Part shown: positions 10,910-25,423 of the stretch, one piece after another
Numbering within the stretch: the first letter of the stretch is position 1
Layout: each line of letters begins with the position of its first letter
Assembly: GCA_965370555.1 (NCBI GenBank)
Contig: CBDUVB010000004.1
Span: forward strand, 15,269 to 79,268
Source: an uncultured bacterium
Lineage (GTDB): Bacteria; Bipolaricaulota; Bipolaricaulia; UBA7950; UBA9294
Direction: 5' to 3'
Length of the DNA stretch: 64,000 nucleotides
Made by a program: the position numbers and the translations under genes
Notes under the pieces: model-generated
What the model was told of the DNA's origin: nothing
The model's database searches: none
What the model saw: the letters and a program-made list of their open reading frames with translations, nothing else

Positions 10910-11824
10910 ATGTCCAAGAAAACACTGGGTACGTTCGTATCGGTTATGGGGGTCTTGCTTCTCATAAGCGTTCTCTCATGGTCACAGACGATCGTGATCA
11001 ACGAGGTGGCGTGGGCCGGGACCGCAGCGAACTCTGCTGATGAATGGATCGAGCTTTATAATTCTTCGGAGGAAGCGGTCGACCTCACCGGGTGGACGCT
11101 CACCTTCGGAAAGTTCACGATCGACCTTGGTGCCGGGTTGGAGACGCTCCTCGAACCGGGTGTGTACTTCCTGCTCGAACGGACCGACGATACGACGGTC
11201 TCCGATATCGATGCCGACCTGATCTACACAGGGGGACTCATCAACGATGGAATGCTGATCGAACTCCTCGATCCGATGGGAGAGGTAGTCGACACGGCTA
11301 ACGCAGGACAGGAGACTGAATGGGCGGGCGGAAGTGATAAGAGCGGTGATCTGCCGTATGCCACGATGGAGCGGATCGATCCGCTGGCAGCGGATACCCC
11401 GGACAACTGGCGCTCGAATGAAGGTACACTCACCTGTGGACACGATGTGGAAGGGAACACACTGAACGGAACACCGAAGGCAAAGAATGCGGCAACGATT
11501 GTCTTTGAGACGGTTCCTGTTGTGGCAGTGCTCTCTCCGGTAGAGGATGGAGAGGTGGTAAGCGGGACTTTCATCATCACCTGGACGGCGACTGATCCCG
11601 ATGGTCCTTCAGATCAGCTACTGCTGATCGATATCCTGCTCTCTGCGGACGGTGGTGAGAGCTGGGAAATGATCGTAGAGGGGCTGGTCGGGGGTTCCTA
11701 CGCCTGGGACACGACCACGCTTCCTAACGGGGATACATACCAATTGAAGGTGATCGCAATGGATACCGGTGGGAACGTCGGTGAAGGAATCAGCCCCCTC
11801 TTCTCTATTGCGAACCCGGGTTAA
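10910..11824 (+). CDS. Secreted lamin-tail-domain (LTD) protein with C-terminal Ig/Fn3-like domain
   Basis: Signal peptide, then IVINEVAWAGTAANSADEWIELYNSSEEAVDLTGWTL (LTD signature). C-terminal beta-rich segment (TWTATDPDG...YQLKVIAMDTGGN). Confidence 0.8.
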   Translation: MSKKTLGTFVSVMGVLLLISVLSWSQTIVINEVAWAGTAANSADEWIELYNSSEEAVDLTGWTLTFGKFTIDLGAGLETLLEPGVYFLLERTDDTTVSDIDADLIYTGGLINDGMLIELLDPMGEVVDTANAGQETEWAGGSDKSGDLPYATMERIDPLAADTPDNWRSNEGTLTCGHDVEGNTLNGTPKAKNAATIVFETVPVVAVLSPVEDGEVVSGTFIITWTATDPDGPSDQLLLIDILLSADGGESWEMIVEGLVGGSYAWDTTTLPNGDTYQLKVIAMDTGGNVGEGISPLFSIANPG

Positions 11825-12705
11825 GGGTGCGGGGAGATAGCGACACCACATAGCCGCTTGATCTCGTCCATGTGAGCGAGGGCCTCTTCCTTCCCGGCTT
11901 GCACGGCCTCGGGGAGGTGTTCGAAGGCGAGCATCGTGATCCATTCGACATCAGGATGGAGGAGGAGGAAACGTCCGTCGAGGCGGTCCCGCGCTTGCGC
12001 GAGTTGAAGGGCGGTGAGGTGCTGCGACGTGATTCGTTGAGATTGGAATAAGACATCCAGGCTGGTCTTCACGCTTCGCGTCAACGGAGCGCTGGTGTCT
12101 ACTGCGATAAGGATCTCAGCCCCGAGGTCGATCGCTACGTTCGCCGGGATCTTATCGATCACCCCTCCATCGATTAGGTAACGGCCCTCGTGGAGGATGG
12201 GGGAGAAGATCCCCGGGACCGCAGCGCTCGCTGCCATCGCCAGATAGAGTTTCCCCTCGGTCAGAACAGCCCGCTCCCCGCTCTCCAGGTCGGCCGCCAC
12301 CGTGGCGAACGGGATCTGGAGGTCGGAGAAACTCTTGTTGGCAGTCAACAGGGAGAAGAACTGGCACATGCGGGCAAGGTTCTCCGGGGCGGTCCCATCC
12401 TGGCGCCAGCTTGCACCACGCACATACTCAACCATCCCCCGTCCGATGGCGCGTTGCACCTCACGCAACGTGCTATCCGAGACCTGTAACAGACTGTTCA
12501 GGTCCAGGCAGTTGAGGATACGTTCTAACTTGCGAAGGTCCATCCCGAGCGCCTTGACCGCGCCCATCCCGGCTCCCATGCTCGTCCCGGTGATAATGTC
12601 GATCGGGATCCCGTTCTCTTCCAGGGCGAGGAGGACCCCCAGGTGAGCAAAGCCGCGTGCGCCACCTCCACCAAGAGCGATACCGACCTTTCGCTGTTTG
12701 AACAA
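11821..12705 (-). CDS. Patatin-like phospholipase
   Basis: GGGGARG oxyanion motif, GTSMG nucleophile elbow and DGG motif. TTG start with aaggggggg 6 nt upstream. Confidence 0.9.
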   Translation of the reverse strand: MFKQRKVGIALGGGGARGFAHLGVLLALEENGIPIDIITGTSMGAGMGAVKALGMDLRKLERILNCLDLNSLLQVSDSTLREVQRAIGRGMVEYVRGASWRQDGTAPENLARMCQFFSLLTANKSFSDLQIPFATVAADLESGERAVLTEGKLYLAMAASAAVPGIFSPILHEGRYLIDGGVIDKIPANVAIDLGAEILIAVDTSAPLTRSVKTSLDVLFQSQRITSQHLTALQLAQARDRLDGRFLLLHPDVEWITMLAFEHLPEAVQAGKEEALAHMDEIKRLCGVAISPHP

Positions 12706-15308: not shown

Positions 15309-15692
15309 ATGGGAAGTATGAAGGAATGGACCCTCTATTTGATATCGGTCGTCGCGCTCCTCGGATTGGTTCTCCTCTATCAGGTGGCAGGCCCCTACTA
15401 TGAAGTAGGGATCGCCTCCTGGTATGGACCGGGGTTCGATGGAAACTACACTGCAAACGGCGAAGTCTACGACATGAACGGGATCAGCGCAGCTCACAAG
15501 ACTCTCCCCTTCGGCACAATTGTCAGGGTGGTCGAGTTTTCGACGGGGAAGAGCATAATAGTGCGCATCAATGACCGAGGCCCGTTCATCGAAGGGCGGA
15601 TCATCGACCTCTCCAAGGGAGCGGCGAGGGAGTTGGGGATCATCGATAAGGGGATCACCAAGGTAGGATTGCGGATCATCCGCTGGCCCTAA
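15309..15692 (+). CDS. rlpA: RlpA-like septal ring lytic transglycosylase (DPBB domain) with N-terminal anchor
   Basis: GIASWYGPGFDGNYTANGEVYDMNGISAAHKTLPFGTIVRV...VRINDRGPF is the RlpA/DPBB_1 signature. Confidence 0.85.
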   Translation: MGSMKEWTLYLISVVALLGLVLLYQVAGPYYEVGIASWYGPGFDGNYTANGEVYDMNGISAAHKTLPFGTIVRVVEFSTGKSIIVRINDRGPFIEGRIIDLSKGAARELGIIDKGITKVGLRIIRWP

Positions 15693-16040
15693 AGGCCATT
15701 AACTCCGCGCCTCTTAGGCTCTTCGCTGTGTCGAGTGGGTCACGGTTTCCAACTTTAGTCATTCAGTGACCCGACAAGGACATTTCTTTCTCTCGCCAAG
15801 ACACCAGGATCACCGGTCTTCGTCCAGCCCTACCTCTACTTGTCTTCCGCTCTTCTTTGCGCCTTTGCGAGATACAGTCTTTTTTCTCTCGCCCGTTCGC
15901 TACACTCACTCAAGACGCAAAGGTGTCGCGACACCAAGATCGCCAAGGGATAGTGGTTTTCACTCTTCGTGTCTCCGTGTCCCCGAGTCTCCCCTTCCTG
16001 CTCTTCGGCGAGAGACTCATCTCGTGAATCGTTCTCTGGG

Positions 16041-16244
16041 TTACCTTAGCCGTGAGGAACCACAACAAAAATGCCCTAATGCCCCAAAATCACCGAAACT
16101 AACGATCAGAAAGGGGTGATGAAAGAGAACCTCCAGGAGGTGGAGTAGCAGTATGGCTTTTTCGAGCATCTCTGTGCGGAAACCAGTGGCCTCCGCATCG
16201 GAAAGCAGCCTTTCCTTCGAGATCCTCACAGCACTTCCTCCCAA
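16041..16244 (-). pseudogene. AbiEii-type nucleotidyltransferase toxin, N-terminal remnant only (67 codons)
   Basis: ISKERLLSDAEATGFRTEMLEKAILLLHLLEVLFHHPFL resembles the typical AbiEii N-terminus. The ORF overlaps the AbiEi stop by 19 nt, as in intact pairs. It terminates after about 67 aa, whereas intact toxins are roughly 250-300 aa. No NTase core motifs follow in any frame. Confidence 0.6.
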
Positions 16245-17071
16245 CTACGCTCCAGGATTGCCAGAGGAACTACTAGGTTCCACTCTGGGATCAGACGCCC
16301 TGATCCTCTGGTGGTGCGTATCATATAGTGTGGACTCCGTGGCCGATGGGCGCGTAAAGCCGCCAGGTGATCATCCTCGACCACGAACCTATCCCGATGT
16401 TCCTCCAAGAAAAATCCGACCTTGCCGACAGTAGTTGCATTCTCCAGGAGCAGAGCGTACTTCACAACCGCATCCAAATCGAAGAACTCCACTGCCTCTA
16501 GCGATCGCCATATCTCTTCCCATCCTCCCCCCAGCTCCGGTCGGTCGAGGACATCCACCAGTGTCCGTTCCAGGCTGGTGACCCGAACGGGCACTCCGAG
16601 CCGCTCATGTATCTCTACGCTGAAAAATCCCTTCCCCTTCTCCTGAAGCTGCTTAGGCAATCGGACACCACGGAACTCATTCGCGCGGAACGTAGCAGCA
16701 CGCGTTGCACGCCTAGTCAGGTAGAGGTACAGACTACTAGAGGAGTAAGCCTTGCCATAGAATTGCAAGGCAGTATGGTACCCAAGCACTGCATCATCGG
16801 CCATCTTAGCTGCTAGCAGGTAGGGGTCAACTTGGCAAGATGCTGGATTAGAACCTGCTGGGACTATCACGTACAATCCACGACGCGCCCGCAACAAACG
16901 CCCCTTCTTCGTATGATATCGAAGGAGCGACTCCGTCGTTCTTTTACTACCAGGCCTCTGTAGCTGGAGAAATGCTGCGAACTCGCTTGTAGAAAAGACT
17001 GGATTTCTCTCGAAGAACCCATGAACGTCCACTTTACTCACCTTCTTGACATCAAGTAGCACAACCCGCAA
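16226..17071 (-). CDS. Type IV toxin-antitoxin system AbiEi-family antitoxin
   Basis: N-terminal wHTH-like region (VFSTSEFAAF...SLLRYHTKKGRLLRARRGLY). C-terminal domain has LGYHTALQFYG and ERTLVDVLDRPELGGGWEE, typical of AbiEi. The start codon is uncertain (TTG at 17071, with alternative GTGs downstream). Confidence 0.8.
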   Translation of the reverse strand: MRVVLLDVKKVSKVDVHGFFERNPVFSTSEFAAFLQLQRPGSKRTTESLLRYHTKKGRLLRARRGLYVIVPAGSNPASCQVDPYLLAAKMADDAVLGYHTALQFYGKAYSSSSLYLYLTRRATRAATFRANEFRGVRLPKQLQEKGKGFFSVEIHERLGVPVRVTSLERTLVDVLDRPELGGGWEEIWRSLEAVEFFDLDAVVKYALLLENATTVGKVGFFLEEHRDRFVVEDDHLAALRAHRPRSPHYMIRTTRGSGRLIPEWNLVVPLAILERSWEEVL

Positions 17072-17637
17072 GATTGTTACGTATTGTGCTGGCCTTTGTC
17101 AAGTAAACGGGGCCACGTTCTGTCACCGCGTTGGCAGATTGACTAATCGCAGTGGACAGCAATGCGCGTATTCCGATTGACCCGAACCGAGCAGAAGAGT
17201 TTGTCCCACCATGGGTGCGTCGCCCCGTGATTTGCCACAAAGTTCAAACCGATGAGTTAAGCATTAGGTCCCCGTAATTCCAGAATGAAGAACCGTGGGG
17301 GCGGCGTAAAAAACACCAAGAATAAAGACCTGACACCGGCGCCCTTGCCTGGTGCTGGAAAGGGTTTTTGTGTATCCATATTCCCCCTTATCACTCACCC
17401 TCCCGGCGCTCTAGCAAAGCTGGGCCGGGAAGATAGTAGGCTCCGCACCGCTCCCCTTTTAGTTGAAGATAGCCTTCATCTACAAGTCGTTTAAGTTCGT
17501 TTTTTGCCGCGTTGTGGATCACAAGACCAGGCAGTAGGATCGGCCAGGTACTTGACATCCTCGAGGCAGCTTCTATAATGAACTTGACCTCTACTTATAG
17601 TTTGGGTCCTACAAAGGCTTCGACCGCTGGGCCAATA

Positions 17638-17886
17638 CTAACCAGCGGTCAAACACTTCAGCCTACACTCCCAATGGTTACCACCTTGGTCCTGAGCGGA
17701 TCTTTTGGACCGCGGGTTGATCCATGGCAGAGAAAGGCAGAAACACCAAAAATAAAGATCAGGCCCCAATTCTCCTGCATCTTTCAGGGCCCCTGACACC
17801 TCAGGTCTAAAGCGAAATGCCATCACTACCACCAAGATCCCTGCAAGCACAAACACTACTGACAGAATCACCTGTACAAACATCAC
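17638..17886 (-). CDS. Hypothetical small protein with one N-terminal TM helix (tentative)
   Basis: MMFVQVILSVVFVLAGILVVVMAF then a polar tail. Starts 30 nt downstream of the 413-aa ORF on the same strand. No clear RBS. Confidence 0.3.
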   Translation of the reverse strand: MMFVQVILSVVFVLAGILVVVMAFRFRPEVSGALKDAGELGPDLYFWCFCLSLPWINPRSKRSAQDQGGNHWECRLKCLTAG

Positions 17887-17916
17887 GAAGTCCCCAACAT
17901 CGAAACCGAAACCCGT

Positions 17917-19158
17917 TCAACACCCTCCTTTCGATACTCGATTAGTCCCATGTCTCGACACCTTCTTCTGCAGAGTTCGGAAGAGGCGGCGAATTGGGAA
18001 GGCCTCCATTAGCAGGCCTCGCTGCTTGGCACCATGAAGATAGGCGACCGGAGATGTATCCAGCGCATCTGCAATCGCGTTCCTCTCACGGATCGCATGT
18101 TTCGTTATTTCCAAGACAAGCGGAGCTCCGATCCCAACTGCTTTCCACCATACTGGGATCTCGGAGGCAAAGGCCATCCCTCCAATCGCCTCAACGAATG
18201 GACTCGACTCGGTCTTGAGCACCACATCGACCTTATTGAACACTGCTTTGAGTCTGCGGCGCCTGAGCTTGGATGCCAACTCGTGCCGTTGGATATCCAT
18301 GTCGTGCATGAATCGCCGCAGGCATCTGAGTACTGCGGCCTCATCGCTTGCGGAAGCTACTTCAAGCGCCAACTCATCAATCAGCAGGCGGAAACGTGCG
18401 TAGCGTTCCCAATGGCGTTCTTTGAATCGGACGATGTCCTCAATGCGCGTGTCATGCGCAGGCATCGGAAACGCGTTCGATAGAACGAGCCCAAGCACAG
18501 GGGCGCTACTCGTCTGTGCCGAAGACGAGTACAGCAGTTGTCCGATAGCCATAGCGTCCGTGCTCGGCACGTAACGTTCTGCCTCGAAGGCACTGTAGTC
18601 ACGAGCCAATAGCCCCCAATGAAGCGCATTTCGAAGAACGGCGTGGCGCCTTGCTTCATCAACGGAAACGTTGAGCCGTTTGGCAAGTCTTGTTTGCACT
18701 TTCCCGTGGAGACCCAGGTCGGCTACCTCCTCCAAATGCTTCCGGACCGCTTCTTCAAGAGTGATCCCTTCCTCTGTCGCTTTGACCTGCGATTGGAGGA
18801 TGGTAACACTGTCCGCTAGCCAAGCCCGAATCGCTTCTCCGGTAGGGCTTGTCTGAATCGCCTTGGCCAGGGGAGTCTCCATCAGAGCGGCGCGCTCCCT
18901 GTCACGTTCTGTCTGTGCATCTAGGATCGGTGGCACGAAGAGGCAGTCTGGCTTCAGTGGAGAGAGCAACCCCTCTCGAATGAGGAATGCAATGTCAGGG
19001 ACAAGCAAGCAGAGCGCATCAACCCAGCGCTCATCCGCAAAGAGCGCTAAGCCATCCCAGTACAGGAGGCCCTGTCGAAGCCACAGCCCTGACGGAATGG
19101 TCATGAATGGAAAGTGCAAAAGCTGTTGGCTTGTCAAATCGACGTATAACTTGCTCAT
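17917..19158 (-). CDS. Hypothetical 413-aa protein, no domain recognised (cargo of repeat module A)
   Basis: Long uninterrupted ORF. ATGA overlap with the upstream 120-aa ORF. Composition looks mostly helical, with one moderately hydrophobic segment near the C-terminus (AIGGMAFASEIPVWWKAVGIGAPLVL). Confidence 0.7.
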   Translation of the reverse strand: MSKLYVDLTSQQLLHFPFMTIPSGLWLRQGLLYWDGLALFADERWVDALCLLVPDIAFLIREGLLSPLKPDCLFVPPILDAQTERDRERAALMETPLAKAIQTSPTGEAIRAWLADSVTILQSQVKATEEGITLEEAVRKHLEEVADLGLHGKVQTRLAKRLNVSVDEARRHAVLRNALHWGLLARDYSAFEAERYVPSTDAMAIGQLLYSSSAQTSSAPVLGLVLSNAFPMPAHDTRIEDIVRFKERHWERYARFRLLIDELALEVASASDEAAVLRCLRRFMHDMDIQRHELASKLRRRRLKAVFNKVDVVLKTESSPFVEAIGGMAFASEIPVWWKAVGIGAPLVLEITKHAIRERNAIADALDTSPVAYLHGAKQRGLLMEAFPIRRLFRTLQKKVSRHGTNRVSKGGC

Positions 19159-19517
19159 CCTTCCTTAGACACTTCCTTGGGCGGGTGGATGTAGGACGGC
19201 CAGTTGGGGGGCTTGGGTTGGCCGGGTTTCCATTCGGGAAAACGTAGGAAGTTGCCGTGTTCGTCTGCGGACAGACCGGGGGGCGGGTCGAGGAGGGTCT
19301 TGTACGATTCGCCCAAGTAGATGGCGTGTTGGAACGCATCGTAGATGCCAAGGATTTGAAGCTTGGTGCGGTATTCGCCGTAGTGACAAAGCTCTTTCTC
19401 TCCGGGGAAGCGCAGGAGTAGGTCTTCCACTGCAACATCAAAACATGTCCTCGGGCGAACATTTCTCTCCGGAGCCTCAACCTCTCTTGTAATGACCTGT
19501 TCTGTTCTCACCCTCAC
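19155..19517 (-). CDS. Duplicated 120-aa leader protein, copy A
   Basis: Residues 22-106 are identical to copy B (22805..23164). GTG start with aaagga upstream. Its stop overlaps the ATG of the 413-aa ORF (ATGA). Confidence 0.65.
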   Translation of the reverse strand: MRVRTEQVITREVEAPERNVRPRTCFDVAVEDLLLRFPGEKELCHYGEYRTKLQILGIYDAFQHAIYLGESYKTLLDPPPGLSADEHGNFLRFPEWKPGQPKPPNWPSYIHPPKEVSKEG

Positions 19518-19639
19518 AGTCCCGTCCTTTCTATCCGATACATAGGCCGCCTATTCACCGTATTTCCTCACCCTCACCCGTTTACTCATTCATTGTACAA
19601 GATTCTCACCCGCGGTGTGAAGCCGGATCAATGCTGACA
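19198..19639 (-). repeat. Direct repeat copy A (442 bp: promoter, 5' UTR and most of the 120-aa ORF)
   Basis: 19198-19455 is identical to 22845-23102 (258 bp, offset 3647). The remainder to 19639 matches 23103-23277 with scattered mismatches and a ~9-nt indel. The repeat ends 1 nt from the helicase stop codon (19641-19643). Confidence 0.9.
19592..19621 (-). promoter_or_regulatory. Sigma70-like promoter inside repeat A (TTCACA-18 nt-TACAAT)
   Basis: Reverse complement of 19616-19621 is ttcaca and of 19592-19597 is tacaat. The same sequence occurs in repeat B. Confidence 0.45.
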
Positions 19640-19640
19640 G

Positions 19641-22600
19641 CTAATCTTGAGTTTTGAATCTGGAACCTTGAATCACCTTGCGGCCCCTCTCCGTGAGCCG
19701 GTACTTCTGCTTGCTGCTGCGGGGTTTGTCAAGAATTGTCATCTCGATAAGTCCCGCTTCAATAGCAGGTTGAAGATAGCGGTCCCCGAAGTTCGCTTGA
19801 CCTTTCAGTCCAAGCGCAGTTTGGGACTGAGAGCGGGTCATTGTGTTAGTTCCCAATACCTCCAAGAGACGACGCACTTCACCTGCAACTTCACCCGTGA
19901 CTTCACCTACGACTTCTTTCGTGACTTGTGGGGTATCGGGCAAGGCGGCGGGCAGAGTCCCATCGGCAATGCTGTCAAGCTTGCGACGACGAGATCGAAT
20001 TGCGCTCGGTTGCCTCCCAAGGATTTCAGCAATAGTTGAGATGGGCACTTTCTCCTTAAGTAATTGGAGAAGCTCCTGCTCCTCATGCTCAGTCCATCTT
20101 GAATAGGCATTAGGGTACTTTTCCTTGATGCGCGCCAATTTTTGATGATACACCGAGTGTTCGAATTCTGTATCTTTGCGTGCGTTGGCGGGTGCTACAT
20201 AGCTCTGGCTTGGCGGTTGAGCCTTTTGTTCATCGGTGGTTCTCGAAGAGCTAGGGCGAGATCGAATGTGCTTCCTGGGACGATACCCGCATAGGTTGCA
20301 CTCGCGCCATGGTCCGTATTCCCCTGACATCTTGATAAGGACACCGGTTTCACACCTCGGACATTTCTCAAGAAGTGTCTCCTCCAGCACATCAATCTGG
20401 TTGACTTGTTTATCGTTTACTAGCTCACGAATGAATTCGGAAGTGTGGGTTTGATCAGAGATAAGAAAAGCCTCTCGCCGAGCTCGCGTTAAGGCCACAT
20501 AGAAAAGCCTTCTCTCCTCGGCATTGGGGAATGATTCGCTGTGCGAGAGCATGAGCTCAATAACTGGATCTTCTGAGATCTCGGAAGGCAACCCGTATCC
20601 ACGTGAGTCGGAGATCACGTCATCGATAATTACATAGTCGGCCTCCAACCCTTTACTCTTATGGATTGTTCTGAATGCGAACCTCAGAAAAGGGAACCGT
20701 GCTTGTAAACGTGCTATCAGGGCTCTTTTCGCTTTGCTATGCGTGTGGTTGTACCTGCCTAGCACAAAGACAGAAGCGGGGGTACCCATGGCATGCTCGG
20801 CGATCATCTCAACAGCTCTAACAAGCGGGGCTTCCCCGCCTTTTTCGTCCTTGCTTGCAAGCAGGAGATGCACTGATTTCTTGCCAGCCGGACGCTTGCA
20901 GGTAAGCCTTTTCCTGATCTGGTATGGATTTTTCAACACGAACTTTGAGCTAAGTTCCTCGATGTTAGGCCCGAAGCGAAAAGTCTCAGGTAGAACGGCC
21001 TGCTTATGAAAACCGAAGTCGTCGTCGAAATGCGTCATAACGCTTACATCAGCGCCAGCAAATCGATAGATTGATTGCCAATCGTCACCCACGCAAAAGA
21101 GTCGTGGTTGATCTGCGTTGTCAAGAATTGCCTTCAGGAAGCGTACCTTAGCAGGGGAGACATCCTGAAACTCGTCAACAAGGACATATCGGCAACACAG
21201 CGAGACTCGCCCGCTGTCCAGCACCTGCTTTCCGCCGTGAATCATGTCGTGGAAGTCGATCTCATTACAGCACCGCAGTTCTGTCTCATACACCTCAAGG
21301 ATTCTGGCGAAGATCTGAAGGATGGCCTGTGCTCGGTGCGATTGTGCGGCTGGAGCAGTGAAGAGCTCGGCCAGCTCATGTGCGCCTTCTTTGTAGAGAT
21401 TCAGGAAAGTGGCAAACAGGTTCGCTAAGCGCGTCACGCGACCACTTTTGTTGAACCTAGTCAGCATCTCACTGCGGCTCCTCGGTTTGAACTCCACACC
21501 CAGCTTGTTCAACTTCTCCGCTAGATTCGGTTCAAGGACACCTTCCTTTGCTTCCCACGAGTAGGATTCAATGAGCTTTGTTCCATGTTCACGATGCAGT
21601 AGCCGCTTCCAGGACATGCCGTCCTTGTAATCCTCTGCATCCCGCCCCTGGAGAAAGCCAGGGTTGCCTTGTCGATCAATCCCGAAGTGTTCAATGTAGA
21701 TTCCGTAATCGAGTAGGTAAAAGTCTGGTTTATACTGCTGGCGACCTGGAGCTGTTGTTTTGCGTTCGTATTTTCTTTCATATTCATACCTAATACCTTG
21801 AGAGAACAAGAAATTTGCGATACGAACCTCTTCGAAGCTCCGAAGTTTCTTGCCTTCTAGAAGAGCACGCGGCTCATGTGCTCGGATGTACTCCCAGTAC
21901 TCCTTCTTCGAACGGCAATCGAGCCATAACTTCGCAGGCGAAAGGTCATTAAGCAGGAAGTTGAACAGTTCTTGCTCGGCAGGATCCGCAAGCATCTCTC
22001 GGATCAACCCCTCGATGAACTGCACGAGAGCTTTGTTATCCTCTGCAAGCTTTGAAGCTGACAACCTCTCAGTCCCAACTTCGGCCATGAGAGAGCGACC
22101 GAAGCTGTGAAACGTGTATACCTCAACCCCTAGACCTCGGAGTCCTTCTCGCATCTCGCCAGCAACGTCTCTGCCAAACGATAACACAAGAAGGTCCTCG
22201 GAAGTGGCTGTTCCGGAGAGCACGAGGGACCGCGCCTTGGCGAGGAGTGTTGTTGTCTTGCCCGTCCCCGCGCCCGCAATCACAAGCGTACGGTCCTCGT
22301 CATGCAGAATGGCTCTTTCCTGTTCCTCGGTCAGAGGATAGTTCATAAGAGACTGGAGCAGCTCTCCGTGCTCTACGCGTTTTCGCTCTACGAACTCATA
22401 ATTCCGGTCATCGATCTCCGGGCGAGCATCGACAATTCGGCTGAGAAACATGGCAGAAAGTGCGGCCTCGCCTTCCGGCAACCCAAGGATTGCCTTCTCA
22501 AGTAGCTCCTTTCCAATGATGTTCTTTGAGGTTTTCAACCAGTCCCGATGCTCACTGTTTCTGAAGTAGTCATTCTTGGAAAGGAGGTTATCAAAGACCT

Positions 22601-22808
22601 GATTGGCCTCGCGAACCTGTGGCAGTAACCCCAGGAATAGTTCTGCTGCATGCTCACGATGAACCGCAACTTCCAGGATGTCCATACACAACCTGTGAAG
22701 CACTCTATTCCGCGCGGCCGTGGTGTTTGTAGCGATCCAGATGTTACGGGAAAGATAGAGAAGCAATAACACTGCAGCGAGCACACCTAATGCAATGCCC
22801 ATGATCAA
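19641..22808 (-). CDS. Membrane-anchored UvrD/helicase IV-like SF1 helicase with PD-(D/E)xK-like insert, Zn-ribbon, Myb/SANT-like HTH and Fic-C-terminal-type wHTH
   Basis: TM helix at aa 3-24. Walker A AGAGTGKTT (aa 178-186), DEFQD (545-549), VGDDWQSIYRFAGA (573-586) and VALTRAR (771-777). Insert ANFLFSQGIRYEYE...YKPDFYLLDYGIYIEHFG (aa 330-376). CPRC-x19-CNLC (816-840). WTEHEEQELL...ISTIAEILGRQPSAIRSRRRKL (905-944). YLQPAIEAGLIEMTILDKPRSSKQKYRLTERG (1011-1042). The track start is TTG at 22808; the first ATG is at 22802. Confidence 0.85.
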   Translation of the reverse strand: MIMGIALGVLAAVLLLLYLSRNIWIATNTTAARNRVLHRLCMDILEVAVHREHAAELFLGLLPQVREANQVFDNLLSKNDYFRNSEHRDWLKTSKNIIGKELLEKAILGLPEGEAALSAMFLSRIVDARPEIDDRNYEFVERKRVEHGELLQSLMNYPLTEEQERAILHDEDRTLVIAGAGTGKTTTLLAKARSLVLSGTATSEDLLVLSFGRDVAGEMREGLRGLGVEVYTFHSFGRSLMAEVGTERLSASKLAEDNKALVQFIEGLIREMLADPAEQELFNFLLNDLSPAKLWLDCRSKKEYWEYIRAHEPRALLEGKKLRSFEEVRIANFLFSQGIRYEYERKYERKTTAPGRQQYKPDFYLLDYGIYIEHFGIDRQGNPGFLQGRDAEDYKDGMSWKRLLHREHGTKLIESYSWEAKEGVLEPNLAEKLNKLGVEFKPRSRSEMLTRFNKSGRVTRLANLFATFLNLYKEGAHELAELFTAPAAQSHRAQAILQIFARILEVYETELRCCNEIDFHDMIHGGKQVLDSGRVSLCCRYVLVDEFQDVSPAKVRFLKAILDNADQPRLFCVGDDWQSIYRFAGADVSVMTHFDDDFGFHKQAVLPETFRFGPNIEELSSKFVLKNPYQIRKRLTCKRPAGKKSVHLLLASKDEKGGEAPLVRAVEMIAEHAMGTPASVFVLGRYNHTHSKAKRALIARLQARFPFLRFAFRTIHKSKGLEADYVIIDDVISDSRGYGLPSEISEDPVIELMLSHSESFPNAEERRLFYVALTRARREAFLISDQTHTSEFIRELVNDKQVNQIDVLEETLLEKCPRCETGVLIKMSGEYGPWRECNLCGYRPRKHIRSRPSSSRTTDEQKAQPPSQSYVAPANARKDTEFEHSVYHQKLARIKEKYPNAYSRWTEHEEQELLQLLKEKVPISTIAEILGRQPSAIRSRRRKLDSIADGTLPAALPDTPQVTKEVVGEVTGEVAGEVRRLLEVLGTNTMTRSQSQTALGLKGQANFGDRYLQPAIEAGLIEMTILDKPRSSKQKYRLTERGRKVIQGSRFKTQD

Positions 22809-23164
22809 TGTTCTGCTACCTCCTTAGGGGAATAGACATGGGGAGGCCAGTTGGGGGGCTTGGGTTGGCCGGGTTTCCATTCGGGAAAACGTAGGAAGTT
22901 GCCGTGTTCGTCTGCGGACAGACCGGGGGGCGGGTCGAGGAGGGTCTTGTACGATTCGCCCAAGTAGATGGCGTGTTGGAACGCATCGTAGATGCCAAGG
23001 ATTTGAAGCTTGGTGCGGTATTCGCCGTAGTGACAAAGCTCTTTCTCTCCGGGGAAGCGCAGGAGTAGGTCTTCCACTGCAACATCAAAACATGTCCTCG
23101 GGTAAACGTTTCGCTCCGAGGCCTCAACCTCTCTTGTAATGACCTGTTGCGATCCCACCCTCAC
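22805..23164 (-). CDS. Duplicated 119-aa leader protein, copy B
   Basis: Same protein as 19155..19517 apart from 5 substitutions in the first 21 aa and a divergent last ~13 aa. The stop TGA (22805-22807) lies 2 nt before the helicase ATG (22800-22802). Confidence 0.65.
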   Translation of the reverse strand: MRVGSQQVITREVEASERNVYPRTCFDVAVEDLLLRFPGEKELCHYGEYRTKLQILGIYDAFQHAIYLGESYKTLLDPPPGLSADEHGNFLRFPEWKPGQPKPPNWPPHVYSPKEVAEH

Positions 23165-23277
23165 AGTCCCATCCTTTCTATCCGATACATAGACCGCCTA
23201 TTCGCTCACCCTCACCCGTTTACTCATTCATTGTACAAGATTCTCACCTGCGGTGTGAAGCCGGATCGATGCTGACA
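22845..23277 (-). repeat. Direct repeat copy B (433 bp)
   Basis: See copy A. 22845-23102 is identical to 19198-19455. Confidence 0.9.
23230..23259 (-). promoter_or_regulatory. Sigma70-like promoter inside repeat B (TTCACA-18 nt-TACAAT)
   Basis: Reverse complement of 23254-23259 is ttcaca and of 23230-23235 is tacaat. Confidence 0.45.
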
Positions 23278-23527
23278 TCTCCTTGACTGACAATAACTTG
23301 CATTGTGCTTTACATAATGGAGCAAAAGTCGTGCGTTCACGTGGTTTTGGGGGATGATTCCCTTGTCCCATGGTCCTGACAAGGTGAGATAGGCTGTTTT
23401 CGGGCTCGCTTCATCCCTCACAGGAACATCATTCGCTGTTCACGGGAACTTCATAAGTGTGGCGTATAGTTACGGTGTGCGAGCAGAGTATCGCACCTCC
23501 TTACAGGCAAGAAAAGTTTGCAAGCAA

Positions 23528-23560
23528 GCGCAAGGCCCCGAAAGGGGCCTTGCGCTTTTA
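23528..23560 (+). terminator. Strong GC hairpin with GNRA-type loop and T tract (intrinsic-terminator-like), no assigned gene
   Basis: gcgcaaggcccc-gaaa-ggggccttgcgc is a 12-bp perfect stem, followed by tttta. Confidence 0.5.
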
Positions 23561-23770
23561 ACACCTTTGTATCCCCACCAGTAGGACACCACGCCACAGT
23601 AGTTGCACGAGTTTTCACGATTGCGACCGCGCTTGTCCAGGACGTGTAAGTAACAGATGTCACATTCCTTGGAGTCTCGTACCCTAGGCATCATCTCGTT
23701 GCGTCTATAACTTAGTGGGTGAAAAGCATCTTCTCGTATGTCTTTCTGAGAACAGAAGAGGAGGTTCACG

Positions 23771-24061
23771 ATGTGCACGGAATGGTGCTATATTCGGTTG
23801 GTCACTTGCGTTGCCCTGATTCTGATGTTCATGGGTTCAGCAAGGGAATTTGCTCAGGAGAAAGCCACAATTGTGCCTCGCATGTCAGAGGAACATGTCT
23901 CTCAGATGTGGGGAAGCCCTCATCGAATTGTTACCTCAGGCGCGGGAGGTGGAGGAGATAGTCTGAAGGAAAACAGTTACGTTTGGATCTACTACAATCC
24001 TTATCGGGTAGTGTTTTACAAAAACGGTGCCGTCACGTATTGCGTTAAATCGGAAGGATAG
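23771..24061 (+). CDS. Small secreted protein, possibly a BamE/SmpA_OmlA-like fold
   Basis: Strong RBS (agaggagg) 6 nt upstream of the ATG. Hydrophobic signal-like N-terminus. MSEEHVSQMWGSPHRI...WIYYNPYRVVFYKNGAVT resembles the BamE-like pattern. Weak call. Confidence 0.5.
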   Translation: MCTEWCYIRLVTCVALILMFMGSAREFAQEKATIVPRMSEEHVSQMWGSPHRIVTSGAGGGGDSLKENSYVWIYYNPYRVVFYKNGAVTYCVKSEG

Positions 24062-24137
24062 GCCCCTCAGATTCTCCAGCTTCTTCCCTTACTGTTTTGA
24101 CGCCTCATGCGCCTGGCCCTGCCTTCGGAGGAATAAA

Positions 24138-24226
24138 GAAATCCCTTGAAATTGACTATCCCCGTAGCAAGACTACGGGGTATTCCGCCAATTTCATTTT
24201 GACCTGAAGGTCAAAACCAGGATTTC
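24138..24226. other. Predicted nested multi-stem element (three helices plus an internal hairpin)
   Basis: gaaatcc (24138-44) pairs with ggatttc (24220-26). gaaattg (24148-54) pairs with caatttc (24189-95) and encloses the hairpin ccccgtag-caaga-ctacgggg (24160-80). ttgacc-tgaa-ggtcaa lies at 24199-24214. Confidence 0.35.
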
Positions 24227-24270
24227 ATTATTTCACCTCACCCCGACCCTCTCCTATCAAGGAGAGGGGT

Positions 24271-24300
24271 ATAAGGAAACCCTGTGGCAAGACCACAGGG
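24271..24300 (-). terminator. Hairpin plus T-rich tail on the minus strand, likely terminator of the ACD-DRTGG operon; copy of the 8938-8968 element
   Basis: The minus strand reads ccctgtgg-tcttg-ccacaggg-tttccttat. It lies ~80 nt downstream of the DRTGG gene stop. Confidence 0.5.
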
Positions 24301-24332
24301 AATCTCAAGTTGAATGATCTGGAGATTGGGAG

Positions 24333-24372
24333 GTTCAATCATTCAATCACTCACTCGCTCAATCACTCAATC
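24333..24372 (-). repeat. 8-nt-period tandem repeat element, copy 2
   Basis: The minus strand reads gattgagt gattgagc gagtgagt gattgaat gattgaac. It begins 8 nt after the stop of the 24380..25423 gene. Confidence 0.85.
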
Positions 24373-24379
24373 CTGTTCC

Positions 24380-25423
24380 CTACAGCGCCTCAACCGCTGC
24401 TAGATCGACGTTCTCTTTGACTAACCGAGTGATGATCTCGATCTTCTTGTCGTCATCCTTGGTCAACAGTGGTTCCAACTTGTCTACCTGCATTGCCGTG
24501 GCGTAAGTGTCGGTCGGGACAAGTAGGACGGGGATCTTCAGCTCACTCGCTTTGGCGGTGACGTTCGCTGGTGGGACGATGTTGTTCGTGAGGACGATGC
24601 ACGAGGTTCCACCGGCTTCCAGCGCAGCGATGATCATGTCGCTTCGATCTCCGCTCGTGATGATCAGCTTGTCAGGCTTAGCGAATATCGGCTCGGCCTG
24701 AGCAGCACTAACCGACATCGCCCCAACGAAGACGTTGCGAATCAAGCGGTTCAACCCGTCTTCCCCGGCGATCACCCGCGCAAAGAGCTTCTCCGCCAGG
24801 TAGCTCACTGAGAGGGTGGTCAACTCCTTCTCGTACGGGATGACCCCAAGAACGTTCACCCCGAGGGACTCGATCTCCGGGAGGTAGGTCTCCTTGAAGT
24901 CGTCGATCTTGATGACCTTGTTGATGATCACTCCGCCGACGTGTGCCTCATCGGACCCGACAAACCGCTTCAAAAAGGCGAGATCATCGGCGATGTCATT
25001 CTTAGATCCTCCGGTGATGATGAGGACCTGGTGCCCGGTCGCCTGAGAGAGGGTGAGCGGATCGAGGTGCACGGACGCCCCATAGGAGAGGTCCTTTCCG
25101 CACTCGATGAACAGCGCTTCCTTGTTCTTCTCCATCTCCGCTATCACCTGTTTCATCTCGTGGGTGATCGACTCCTCGTCGTACATGTAGCGGAGCTTGG
25201 AGTGGTCGAACCCGATCGAGATCCTCTCCGGCTCTTCACCGAGATCGAACAGGTTCACCATCAGGGCCGCGTCGTAATCCCACAGTCGCTTCTTCCGATA
25301 CAAGAACCGATCCCCCAACGGTTTTATGTAGCCGAACTTCTTGTTGAGTGCCCTTCCTATACCGATCAACACGCTCGTCTTTCCAGCACTTTCCCGCGTT
25401 GAGGCAACGATTAGCGAGCCCAT
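24380..25423 (-). CDS. Stand-alone phosphotransacetylase N-terminal-like protein (P-loop/CobQ-like plus DRTGG domain)
   Basis: MGSLIVASTRESAGKTSVLIGIG (P-loop-like), then a ...IITSGDRSDMIIAALEAGGTSCIVLTNN (DRTGG-type) segment. No Pta catalytic (PTA_PTB) domain. The ATG at 25423 lies 1 nt after the ACD stop, with ggaggtggag upstream. Confidence 0.75.
   Translation of the reverse strand: MGSLIVASTRESAGKTSVLIGIGRALNKKFGYIKPLGDRFLYRKKRLWDYDAALMVNLFDLGEEPERISIGFDHSKLRYMYDEESITHEMKQVIAEMEKNKEALFIECGKDLSYGASVHLDPLTLSQATGHQVLIITGGSKNDIADDLAFLKRFVGSDEAHVGGVIINKVIKIDDFKETYLPEIESLGVNVLGVIPYEKELTTLSVSYLAEKLFARVIAGEDGLNRLIRNVFVGAMSVSAAQAEPIFAKPDKLIITSGDRSDMIIAALEAGGTSCIVLTNNIVPPANVTAKASELKIPVLLVPTDTYATAMQVDKLEPLLTKDDDKKIEIITRLVKENVDLAAVEAL

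Follow-up and report, generated by a model that had tools for sequence, protein, structure and literature searches.

A widespread, uncharacterised branch of helicase IV-like proteins with a nuclease-fold insert, and a lineage-specific chimeric tail on one member from an uncultured Bipolaricaulota bacterium

We analysed a 64,000-nucleotide (nt) stretch of DNA, hereafter the window, from an uncultured bacterium of the Bipolaricaulota (GenBank assembly GCA_965370555.1, contig CBDUVB010000004.1, positions 15,269 to 79,268), and in it the helicase gene at positions 19641-22808 of the minus strand. Its product is a member of a widespread and so far uncharacterised branch of the helicase IV-like proteins of superfamily 1A (SF1A; UvrD/Rep-type). 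As judged from the sequences of its relatives, the combination of a transmembrane (TM) helix, a helicase IV-like SF1A motor, a nuclease-fold insert and a four-cysteine (C4) zinc ribbon is the standard build of a large family. The helicase core is of an existing kind, and the new part is a lineage-specific tail of 200 amino acids (aa), which sequence comparisons have shown to be a recent chimeric addition and which makes the gene a three-part chimera. An earlier note on this DNA, made by a model from the letters and their open reading frames (ORFs), had regarded the entire fusion as unusual; this holds for the last 200 aa, whereas TM helix, motor, insert and ribbon proved to be ordinary for the family. 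We are highly confident of the architecture and of the origin of the gene as described below. The overall account, in which family membership, tail capture and mechanism are taken together, is the best explanation we have, and we favour it with moderate confidence.

The helicase gene and its family

The single long ORF at this place encodes 1055 aa from a TTG at 22808 or 1053 aa from an ATG at 22802, two codons further on. An AAGGAGG ribosome-binding site (RBS) lies 10 nt 5' of the TTG, and the stop codon is a TAG at 19641-19643. Residue numbers are counted from the ATG. Translation bore out the ORF together with every motif that had been listed for it, and placed them on the minus strand, which the note had left unstated: AGAGTGKTT (residues 176-184), YKPDFYL...IYIEHFG (357-374), DEFQD (543-547), VGDDWQSIYRFAGA (571-584), VALTRAR (769-775) and the C-terminal tail YLQPAIEAGLIEMTILDKPRSSKQKYRLTERG. 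The parts of the gene are these:

19641..22808, minus strand: whole helicase ORF (translation, start-site reading)
22737..22802, minus strand: N-terminal hydrophobic helix (aa 1-22), a predicted signal-anchor (hydropathy, model)
22338..22730, minus strand: N-terminal region (aa 25-155), wholly helical and without a Pfam match; the end of it aligns with HelD 174-215
21957..22337, minus strand: first part of the SF1A motor (aa 156-282), with Walker A GAGTGKT at 177-183
21423..21956, minus strand: endonuclease I/Vsr-like PD-(D/E)xK insert (aa 283-460), in the 1B region
20403..21422, minus strand: remainder of the SF1A motor (aa 461-800), with DEFQD at 543-547, GDDWQSIYRF at 572-581 and VALTRAR at 769-775
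20283..20372, minus strand: C4 zinc ribbon (aa 811-840)
19956..20249, minus strand: segment B (aa 852-949), lineage-specific, with a Myb/GcrA-like three-helix helix-turn-helix (HTH) core at about aa 900-945
19641..19955, minus strand: segment C (aa 950-1053 and stop), a (GEVx)n linker and a Fic-like_C winged helix (aa 975-1037)

In line with the claim that the SF1 motifs are intact, Walker A, motif II (DExx), motif III (GDxxQ) and motif VI (VALTRA) could all be read in the translation, and the Pfam profiles UvrD-helicase (PF00580; residues 157-596, E 2.6e-40, 139.3 bits) and UvrD_C (PF13361; residues 712-782, E 1.5e-11, 44.8 bits) both scored above their cut-offs. The full-length AlphaFold model has a predicted local distance difference test score (pLDDT) of 81.5 overall and above 90 over residues 30-840, and the best Foldseek matches of its motor are UvrD, PcrA and Rep (E 1e-15 to 1e-18). 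The N-terminal TM helix that had been proposed was recovered as the sole strongly hydrophobic stretch of the protein (19-residue Kyte-Doolittle mean 2.07) and as a helix over residues 2-24 of the model, followed by a long helical N-terminal region. Because Arg residues come after the hydrophobic helix, we infer a membrane anchor of N-out/C-in orientation, which would place the motor in the cytoplasm. The zinc ribbon is present as well; its spacing is CPRC-x17-CNLC (C814, C817, C835, C838) and not the x19 given at first.

A homologue search covering 5.8 billion proteins returned 1065 relatives at our threshold of E<=1e-10, mostly 830-1030 aa long. Database labels for them are 'UvrD-helicase domain-containing' or 'DNA helicase-4', and several carry the latter name from their source. 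The insert (~175 aa) is aligned across in 120 of the 120 best homologues. It lies about 100 aa past Walker A, and its S-x-E-E, Y-x-PDF and Y-I-E-H motifs are all present in our protein; in nearly all of the best 120, Y-x-PDF and IEH(F/W)G are conserved at a fixed distance past Walker A of about 178 residues. Invariant in a 67-sequence alignment are S322, E324, E325, Y357, P359, D360, F361, Y369, E371 and H372, and the four ribbon cysteines form near-invariant columns in the same alignment. Most homologues have C-terminal Topo I-type zinc ribbons (PF01396), with one to three copies in distant members; PF01396 is not significant in our protein, whose C4 ribbon occupies the place of those ribbons. 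A strongly hydrophobic N-terminal segment was found in 43 of the best 120, and no full-length close relative (P0002-P0012) lacks it. One-genome-per-species data show the family spread patchily over bacteria and archaea, in Binatia, Latescibacterota, Limnohabitans, Myxococcota, Vicinamibacterales, Lachnospiraceae, Mesorhizobium, Thermoplasmata, Haloglomus and Woesearchaeota. Our literature search found no paper describing a helicase IV-like family with a nuclease insert.

The closest characterised comparison is with E. coli HelD (b0962), to which the protein is 34-35% identical over residues 134-258 and 458-796; HelD 351-675 is 35% identical to the later part of the motor. Both have an SF1A motor with all motifs and a 2B domain that is short or absent. 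However, HelD has no nuclease insert: only its residues 303-350 (48 aa) stand opposite residues 259-457 (~200 aa) of our protein. The insert is consequently no feature of E. coli helicase IV, and the suggestion that it corresponds to an equivalent region of helicase IV-type proteins did not hold. HelD also lacks the TM helix, zinc ribbon, HTH and winged helix, all of which our protein has. Although the best NCBIfam match is DNA helicase IV (NF008276), its 360.6 bits in two stretches fall short of the equivalog cut-off of 543, and a Pfam scan gave no match to Helicase_IV_N (PF12462). By score, N-terminal domain and architecture alike, we therefore reject the protein as an equivalog of E. coli HelD.

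The nuclease-fold insert

That the insert resembles restriction-endonuclease folds of the Vsr/PD-(D/E)xK kind had been suggested from its motifs, and several methods now agree with this. A profile of 30 insert sequences aligned by hhalign to T7 endonuclease I (gene 3, PF05367) with 93% probability (E 3e-7, 108 columns), and T7 endonuclease I was the sole match when the insert profile was searched against the PDB. The isolated insert matched PHROG families of Holliday junction resolvases (6.5e-8), endonucleases and homing endonucleases. Its AlphaFold (AF2) model has a pLDDT of 91.8, and the Foldseek neighbours of the model include the catalytic domain of I-Bth0305I (probability 0.99), Vsr (0.90), NGO0050 and the R2 restriction-like endonuclease. 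With T7 endonuclease I, the insert shares the motifs S-x-x-E, Y-x-PDF and (I/V)-E. We consider the assignment of the insert to an endonuclease I/Vsr-like PD-(D/E)xK fold to be sound.

Whether this fold cleaves DNA is a different question. When the insert residues are set against the nuclease active site, as the earlier note had proposed, the hhalign pairs E20-E325, D55-D360 and E65-E371 (T7 endonuclease I first) preserve the acids, but K67 faces F373, so that the lysine part of the expectation is lost. Three points on the insert weigh against our overall account. The position of K67 is occupied by Phe, Trp or Leu across the whole family; Phage_endo_I (PF05367) on the isolated insert scores 21.2 bits (E 2.4e-4), under its cut-off of 29.1; and all Foldseek E-values of the insert are weak (at least 0.009). 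The insert was accordingly rejected as a bona fide Phage_endo_I member, since it falls below the cut-off and lacks the lysine of the catalytic tetrad E20, D55, E65 and K67. It differs from T7 endonuclease I further in an invariant His that follows the Glu, and in its setting: the phage enzyme is a free domain-swapped dimer, whereas the present domain is embedded in a helicase, and was modelled, both as insert and in the full-length protein, as a monomer only. The three invariant acids and the neighbouring His argue for chemistry, while the missing canonical lysine argues for caution on catalysis; as this lysine is gone from the whole family, nuclease activity of the insert is not assured. The substitution K67A kills cleavage by T7 endonuclease I but leaves junction binding intact. 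By analogy, and because the counterpart of K67 is absent, the insert may bind branched DNA without cutting it.

Origin of the C-terminal tail

Residues 1-851 of the helicase are 81% identical to an 849-aa protein from Acetothermia. This and the other close relatives (52-81% identity) are about 850 aa long and finish directly behind the zinc ribbon; none of the other 119 best homologues has the 200-aa tail. At the DNA level, homology to the Acetothermia locus (L002) stops at ~20260, six codons short of the stop of the L002 gene.

What follows is of two different origins. The domain of segment B recurs in 987 proteins at E<=0.001 (exhaustive HMMER search), often in tandem arrays or C-terminal on RecQ and UvrD-type helicases (P0265, P0350, P0370), P0370 consisting of UvrD, a zinc ribbon and a segment B-type HTH. 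The Myb-like HTH that had been read here was upheld: Pfam points to a Myb/GcrA/HTH_23-like domain, with Myb_DNA-bind_6 at E 2.5e-4 (slightly below cut-off), and a PHROG family described as D5-like transcriptional regulator matches at E 8.5e-9. Segment C (residues 950-1053, 104 aa) includes the linker, whose coding DNA is a 12-nt tandem repeat (19876-19927), and is 81-85% identical to the tails of P0121-P0123, an identity that reaches the final ...SRFKTQD. Donors of this type are proteins with HATPase_c_4 and Fic-like_C domains. Fic-like_C (PF21247) matches residues 975-1037 of the helicase (E 6e-22, 77.7 bits against a cut-off of 27), and the Fic protein structure 4rgl matches residues 966-1045 (E 2.9e-8); the earlier note's reading of this tail as the C-terminal winged helix of Fic and AlbA_2/HATPase_c_4 proteins was thus accurate. 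The alignment-free model of segment C has low confidence, and a literature search on the Fic-like_C tail found nothing specific. In comparison with COG2865/bacterial Schlafen-type proteins (AlbA_2, HATPase_c_4 and Fic-like_C), our gene shares the tail and the downstream flank, and has captured the tail only; no remnants of HATPase_c_4 or AlbA_2 genes were found elsewhere in the window. A Fic/DOC AMPylating enzyme was rejected, as there is no match to the Fido domain (PF02661) and only the tail is common with Fic proteins (P0150, P0156).

Both breakpoints of the chimera are mapped, that between segments B and C to the base, and parental forms persist in the same samples. Several metagenome contigs follow the window as far as 19956, where they change to the ...VYVTF reading of the parental genes; this sets the breakpoint at 19956/19957. 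The match to the donor side runs beyond the gene: DNA of locus L008, where a HATPase_c_4 and Fic-like_C gene comes after an AlbA_2 ORF, is 83.7% identical to the window from 19934 through the stop codon to 19435, some 200 bp past the gene. In a marine-sediment lineage, probably of Acetothermia/Bipolaricaulota, the helicase gene thus gained its 200 aa in two pieces. The first is a Myb/GcrA-like HTH of the type that ends RecQ and UvrD helicases; the second, the (GEVx)n linker with Fic-like_C, comes from a COG2865/Schlafen-type (AlbA_2-HATPase_c_4) gene and, through recombination at 19956/19957, brought the donor's downstream promoter and leader along. This left the gene between 465-bp direct repeats, in a low-GC island of defence-type genes. 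Recombination may be especially frequent in the tetrapeptide-repeat DNA, as a hot spot.

Other rearranged genes were seen on the donor side. P0180 joins a different N-terminus, of an unassigned family, to a HATPase_c_4 fragment and GEV repeats; P0124 carries the unit of repeat and Fic-like_C twice in tandem; and at L008 (699-2226) the AlbA_2 and HATPase_c_4 parts are split over two overlapping ORFs.

Two other accounts of the tail have to be weighed. The fusion could have been produced in assembly, by joining the helicase gene to an unrelated repeated sequence, given that the join is beside sequence that often defeats assemblers, namely a tandem repeat and a multi-copy element, and that Logan contigs break at it. 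Nevertheless, X1 contig 5 (19927-20115, without any difference from the window) and the X4 contig (19923-20997) jointly cross the A/B (~20260) and B/C (19956) junctions. Since the X4 contig, from another study, of a cold seep, is 97% identical and crosses both junctions independently, we reject an artefact as highly improbable. The other account, which concerns the tail only, whatever the role of the core, is that these 200 aa are a neutral by-product of rearrangement in the island, with an HTH and Fic-like_C that add nothing or are being lost. It is in keeping with the ending of all close relatives right after the ribbon, with the predicted disorder of the 34-residue joint between ribbon and segment B, and with the highly repeated, often recombining nature of the module and its flank, of which the chimeras P0180 and P0124 are examples: in metagenomes holding the window sequence, read depth over 19470-19740 and the 12-nt repeat exceeds that of the flanks 10- to 100-fold, from which we take the tail module to be multi-copy in these communities. 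Against it, no stop codon interrupts the frame over the 200 aa, the chimera occurs in two studies at 97% identity, the HTH folds confidently without an alignment (pLDDT ~82), and segment C is still 85% identical to intact relatives. Between two strains, segment B has 7 synonymous and 2 non-synonymous differences with none in the HTH core, a pattern that, for a small sample, is consistent with purifying selection. We therefore think a neutral tail unlikely.

Genomic setting, mechanism and role

The helicase gene lies within an island of low G+C (0.49-0.54 over about 15.7-24.4 kb, against 0.56-0.62 in the flanks), bordered by groEL and rlpA on one side and by genes of acetyl-CoA metabolism on the other. 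No tRNA was found in a scan of the whole window, and hence no tRNA-linked integration site; neither island edge has an integrase gene. Close relatives have varied neighbours: in one case DUF4268 and a gene recognised from its translated sequence as type III restriction Res, then DUF488 and a nucleotidyltransferase; in another a DUF3800 gene, an AAA_21 ATPase, an IS110 transposase and an integrase. One distant member sits in an apparent integrated element adjoining STAND/TIR proteins, and one adjoins Cas1-Cas2 and a DUF4276/AAA_21 pair. By PADLOC (E<=1e-8, ORFs called mechanically, counts small and descriptive), 132 neighbours of 14 insert-family loci matched 143 models, including type I restriction-modification, OloA/OloB (Olokun), IetA and PDC-S02, compared with seven models, judged unspecific, for 81 neighbours of nine E. 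coli-type helD loci (ZorB/MotB-type, mad2, RtcR, PDC-M43B). With the low-GC island, the defence-type neighbours and this contrast to helD, an accessory, defence-like rather than core setting is supported, as the earlier note had expected.

How might such a protein work? Like other SF1A enzymes, the motor would translocate 3'->5' on DNA, driven by ATP, and would do so at the membrane. In UvrD-type motors the 1B region is near the junction of duplex and single strand, so that an insert at this position would bring a nuclease-like domain with structure specificity to DNA that is forked, branched or incoming. The zinc ribbon and the two further modules, HTH and winged helix, would contribute DNA affinity, targeting or self-regulation. 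The role that we find most likely, and put forward tentatively, is the restriction of invading phage or plasmid DNA. A defence role is plausible, and the sensor-effector function ascribed to the protein at the outset is drawn from its context.

Known helicase systems offer partial parallels. Hhe is a Upf1-like SF1B helicase with a terminal Vsr-like domain, whereas our protein has an SF1A motor and an internal nuclease-like domain. The likeness is in logic only, one polypeptide uniting an SF1 helicase with a nuclease in a comparable island context: Hhe has been described as a defence protein encoded by a single gene with helicase and nuclease domains (PMC11482910). No Hhe model was among the best 25 of 56 PADLOC matches to the helicase. 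GajB of the Gabija system has a UvrD-type core too, and its PADLOC models match our protein up to E 4e-36; these matches, however, span the motor segments only, and GajB chains in the PDB match weakly (E 5e-4 to 1.5e-3). As there is no match to a GajA (OLD/TOPRIM) partner among the eight neighbouring ORFs scanned, membership of Gabija was rejected.

Further points weigh against our account as a whole. In PADLOC the helicase itself matches GajB and RTasHel models through a generic UvrD core; a literature search found no biochemical or genetic data for any family member; the TM helix is called from hydropathy and model only; and the neighbourhood comparison is one of small counts. In addition, some family members stand beside ordinary genes (photolyase, alaS), so that a repair role would fit part of the family. 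No RNA sequencing run containing the helicase gene was listed in a search for such runs.

The most serious alternative is indeed an enzyme of DNA repair or recombination, that is, a HelD-like helicase whose junction- or flap-recognising domain acts on stalled forks or intermediates, the island being incidental. E. coli helicase IV has an accessory role in the RecF pathway. The closest named relative of our protein is DNA helicase IV (NF008276, 360.6 bits, with 35% identity of the motors), T7 endonuclease I is annotated as a junction resolvase, and the members that adjoin photolyase or housekeeping genes include a faint match to Helicase_IV_N. Such an enzyme would, however, hardly be expected to have a spread so patchy over bacteria and archaea, or neighbours so variable and so rich in mobile elements and defence genes, when the neighbourhood of E. 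coli helD is fixed; nor to be encoded within a low-GC island; and a membrane anchor is odd for an enzyme of the replication fork. On balance a repair enzyme appears to us doubtful, if a serious competitor, and we continue to prefer restriction of invading DNA.

A family with a junction-resolvase-like domain inside its motor, and often with a membrane anchor, invites tests of a new helicase-nuclease mechanism. If the family is antiviral, it adds a single-gene system of broad phyletic spread. The window itself is an unusually clean case of module gain by defence-island genes, with the type of donor gene identified; as a mapped domain capture it is a tidy example of modular evolution and overturns no expectations.

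Direct repeats and the leader element

Direct repeats of ~465 bp flank the helicase gene. They are 94-95% identical, their core of 260 bp perfectly so, and they resemble what a duplication or a single-crossover insertion would leave behind:

22818..23280, minus strand: upstream copy (DR-U), with promoter-like TTCACA-N18-TACAAT, a leader with the palindrome ATAGGCGGTCTAT, and a 119-aa ORF
19171..19642, minus strand: downstream copy (DR-D), starting at the helicase stop codon, with a 120-aa ORF

Each copy thus has the promoter-like sequence, a purine-rich leader, whose sole obvious symmetry is the 13-bp DNA palindrome, and a 119/120-aa ORF. The 119-aa ORF (22805-23164, minus strand) has its stop codon at 22805-22807, directly before the helicase TTG at 22808; the 120-aa ORF (19155-19517, minus strand) runs across the ATG at 19158 with which the DUF6236 gene begins. 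The family of these ORFs has 31 relatives of 66-204 aa, of which 30 are without a Pfam domain; the first ~58 residues are joined to HSDR_N (PF04313) in P0412. Relatives stand between large genes of defence type: DUF499, or methyltransferase and UvrD, precede them, and GmrSD or a very large gene of no known kind follows. A supposed resemblance of the ORF to the C-terminal end of a large methyltransferase did not hold, as its relatives are all small, and the 120-aa ORF gave no match in plasmids by tblastn.

Promoter-like sequence, purine-rich leader, 13-bp palindrome ATAGGCGGCCTAT, RBS and GTG start make up a conserved element of ~130-226 nt. It occurs in the window at 19510-19642 and 23150-23280, in L008 at 2222-2350, in L102 (two copies) and in L103-L108. 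On several marine-sediment contigs it precedes varied genes, at times twice per contig, and it lies directly 3' of a Fic-like_C tail in four of seven metagenome loci and in L008. The element could be a shared promoter/operator cassette. No Rfam match was obtained over 15500-24500 at E<=1.

A bolder reading, which we consider improbable in its entirety, would combine this element with the family as a whole. The insert-bearing proteins would then be a new and widespread class of single-protein immune effectors, SF1A motors tethered to the membrane whose endonuclease-I-like module has an altered active site, E-D-E-H in place of one with lysine, and which catch foreign DNA, on entry or when branched, at the envelope. 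The unit of tetrapeptide repeat, Fic-like_C and promoter/operator would be a mobile regulatory cassette, moved among defence genes by repeat recombination. The captured winged helix would bind the palindrome just downstream and so control the next gene. If tail and operator do act together, regulation travels with the domain.

Other genes and repeats in and near the island

An AbiEi antitoxin-type gene is found at 16226-17071 on the minus strand (PADLOC E 1.5e-109). No AbiEii nucleotidyltransferase could be recognised downstream of it, where the ORFs were not profile-scanned, and only a 67-aa ORF lies between AbiEi and the rlpA side of the island. The DUF6236 gene (17917-19158, minus strand, 413 aa) has a weak PADLOC match to SspA (E 0.0055). 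A patatin-like phospholipase of RssA type (11821-12705, minus strand, E 8e-36) adjoins groEL and shows faint similarity to anti-phage and CBASS phospholipase models. At the island edge (24150-24353) are two hairpins, ccctgtggtcttgccacaggg and ccccgtagtcttgctacgggg, of the kind found in repetitive extragenic palindromes (REP-like). A 44-nt stretch of this edge (24310-24353) is also found in L103, L105 and L107, where it precedes the leader element by about 110 nt.

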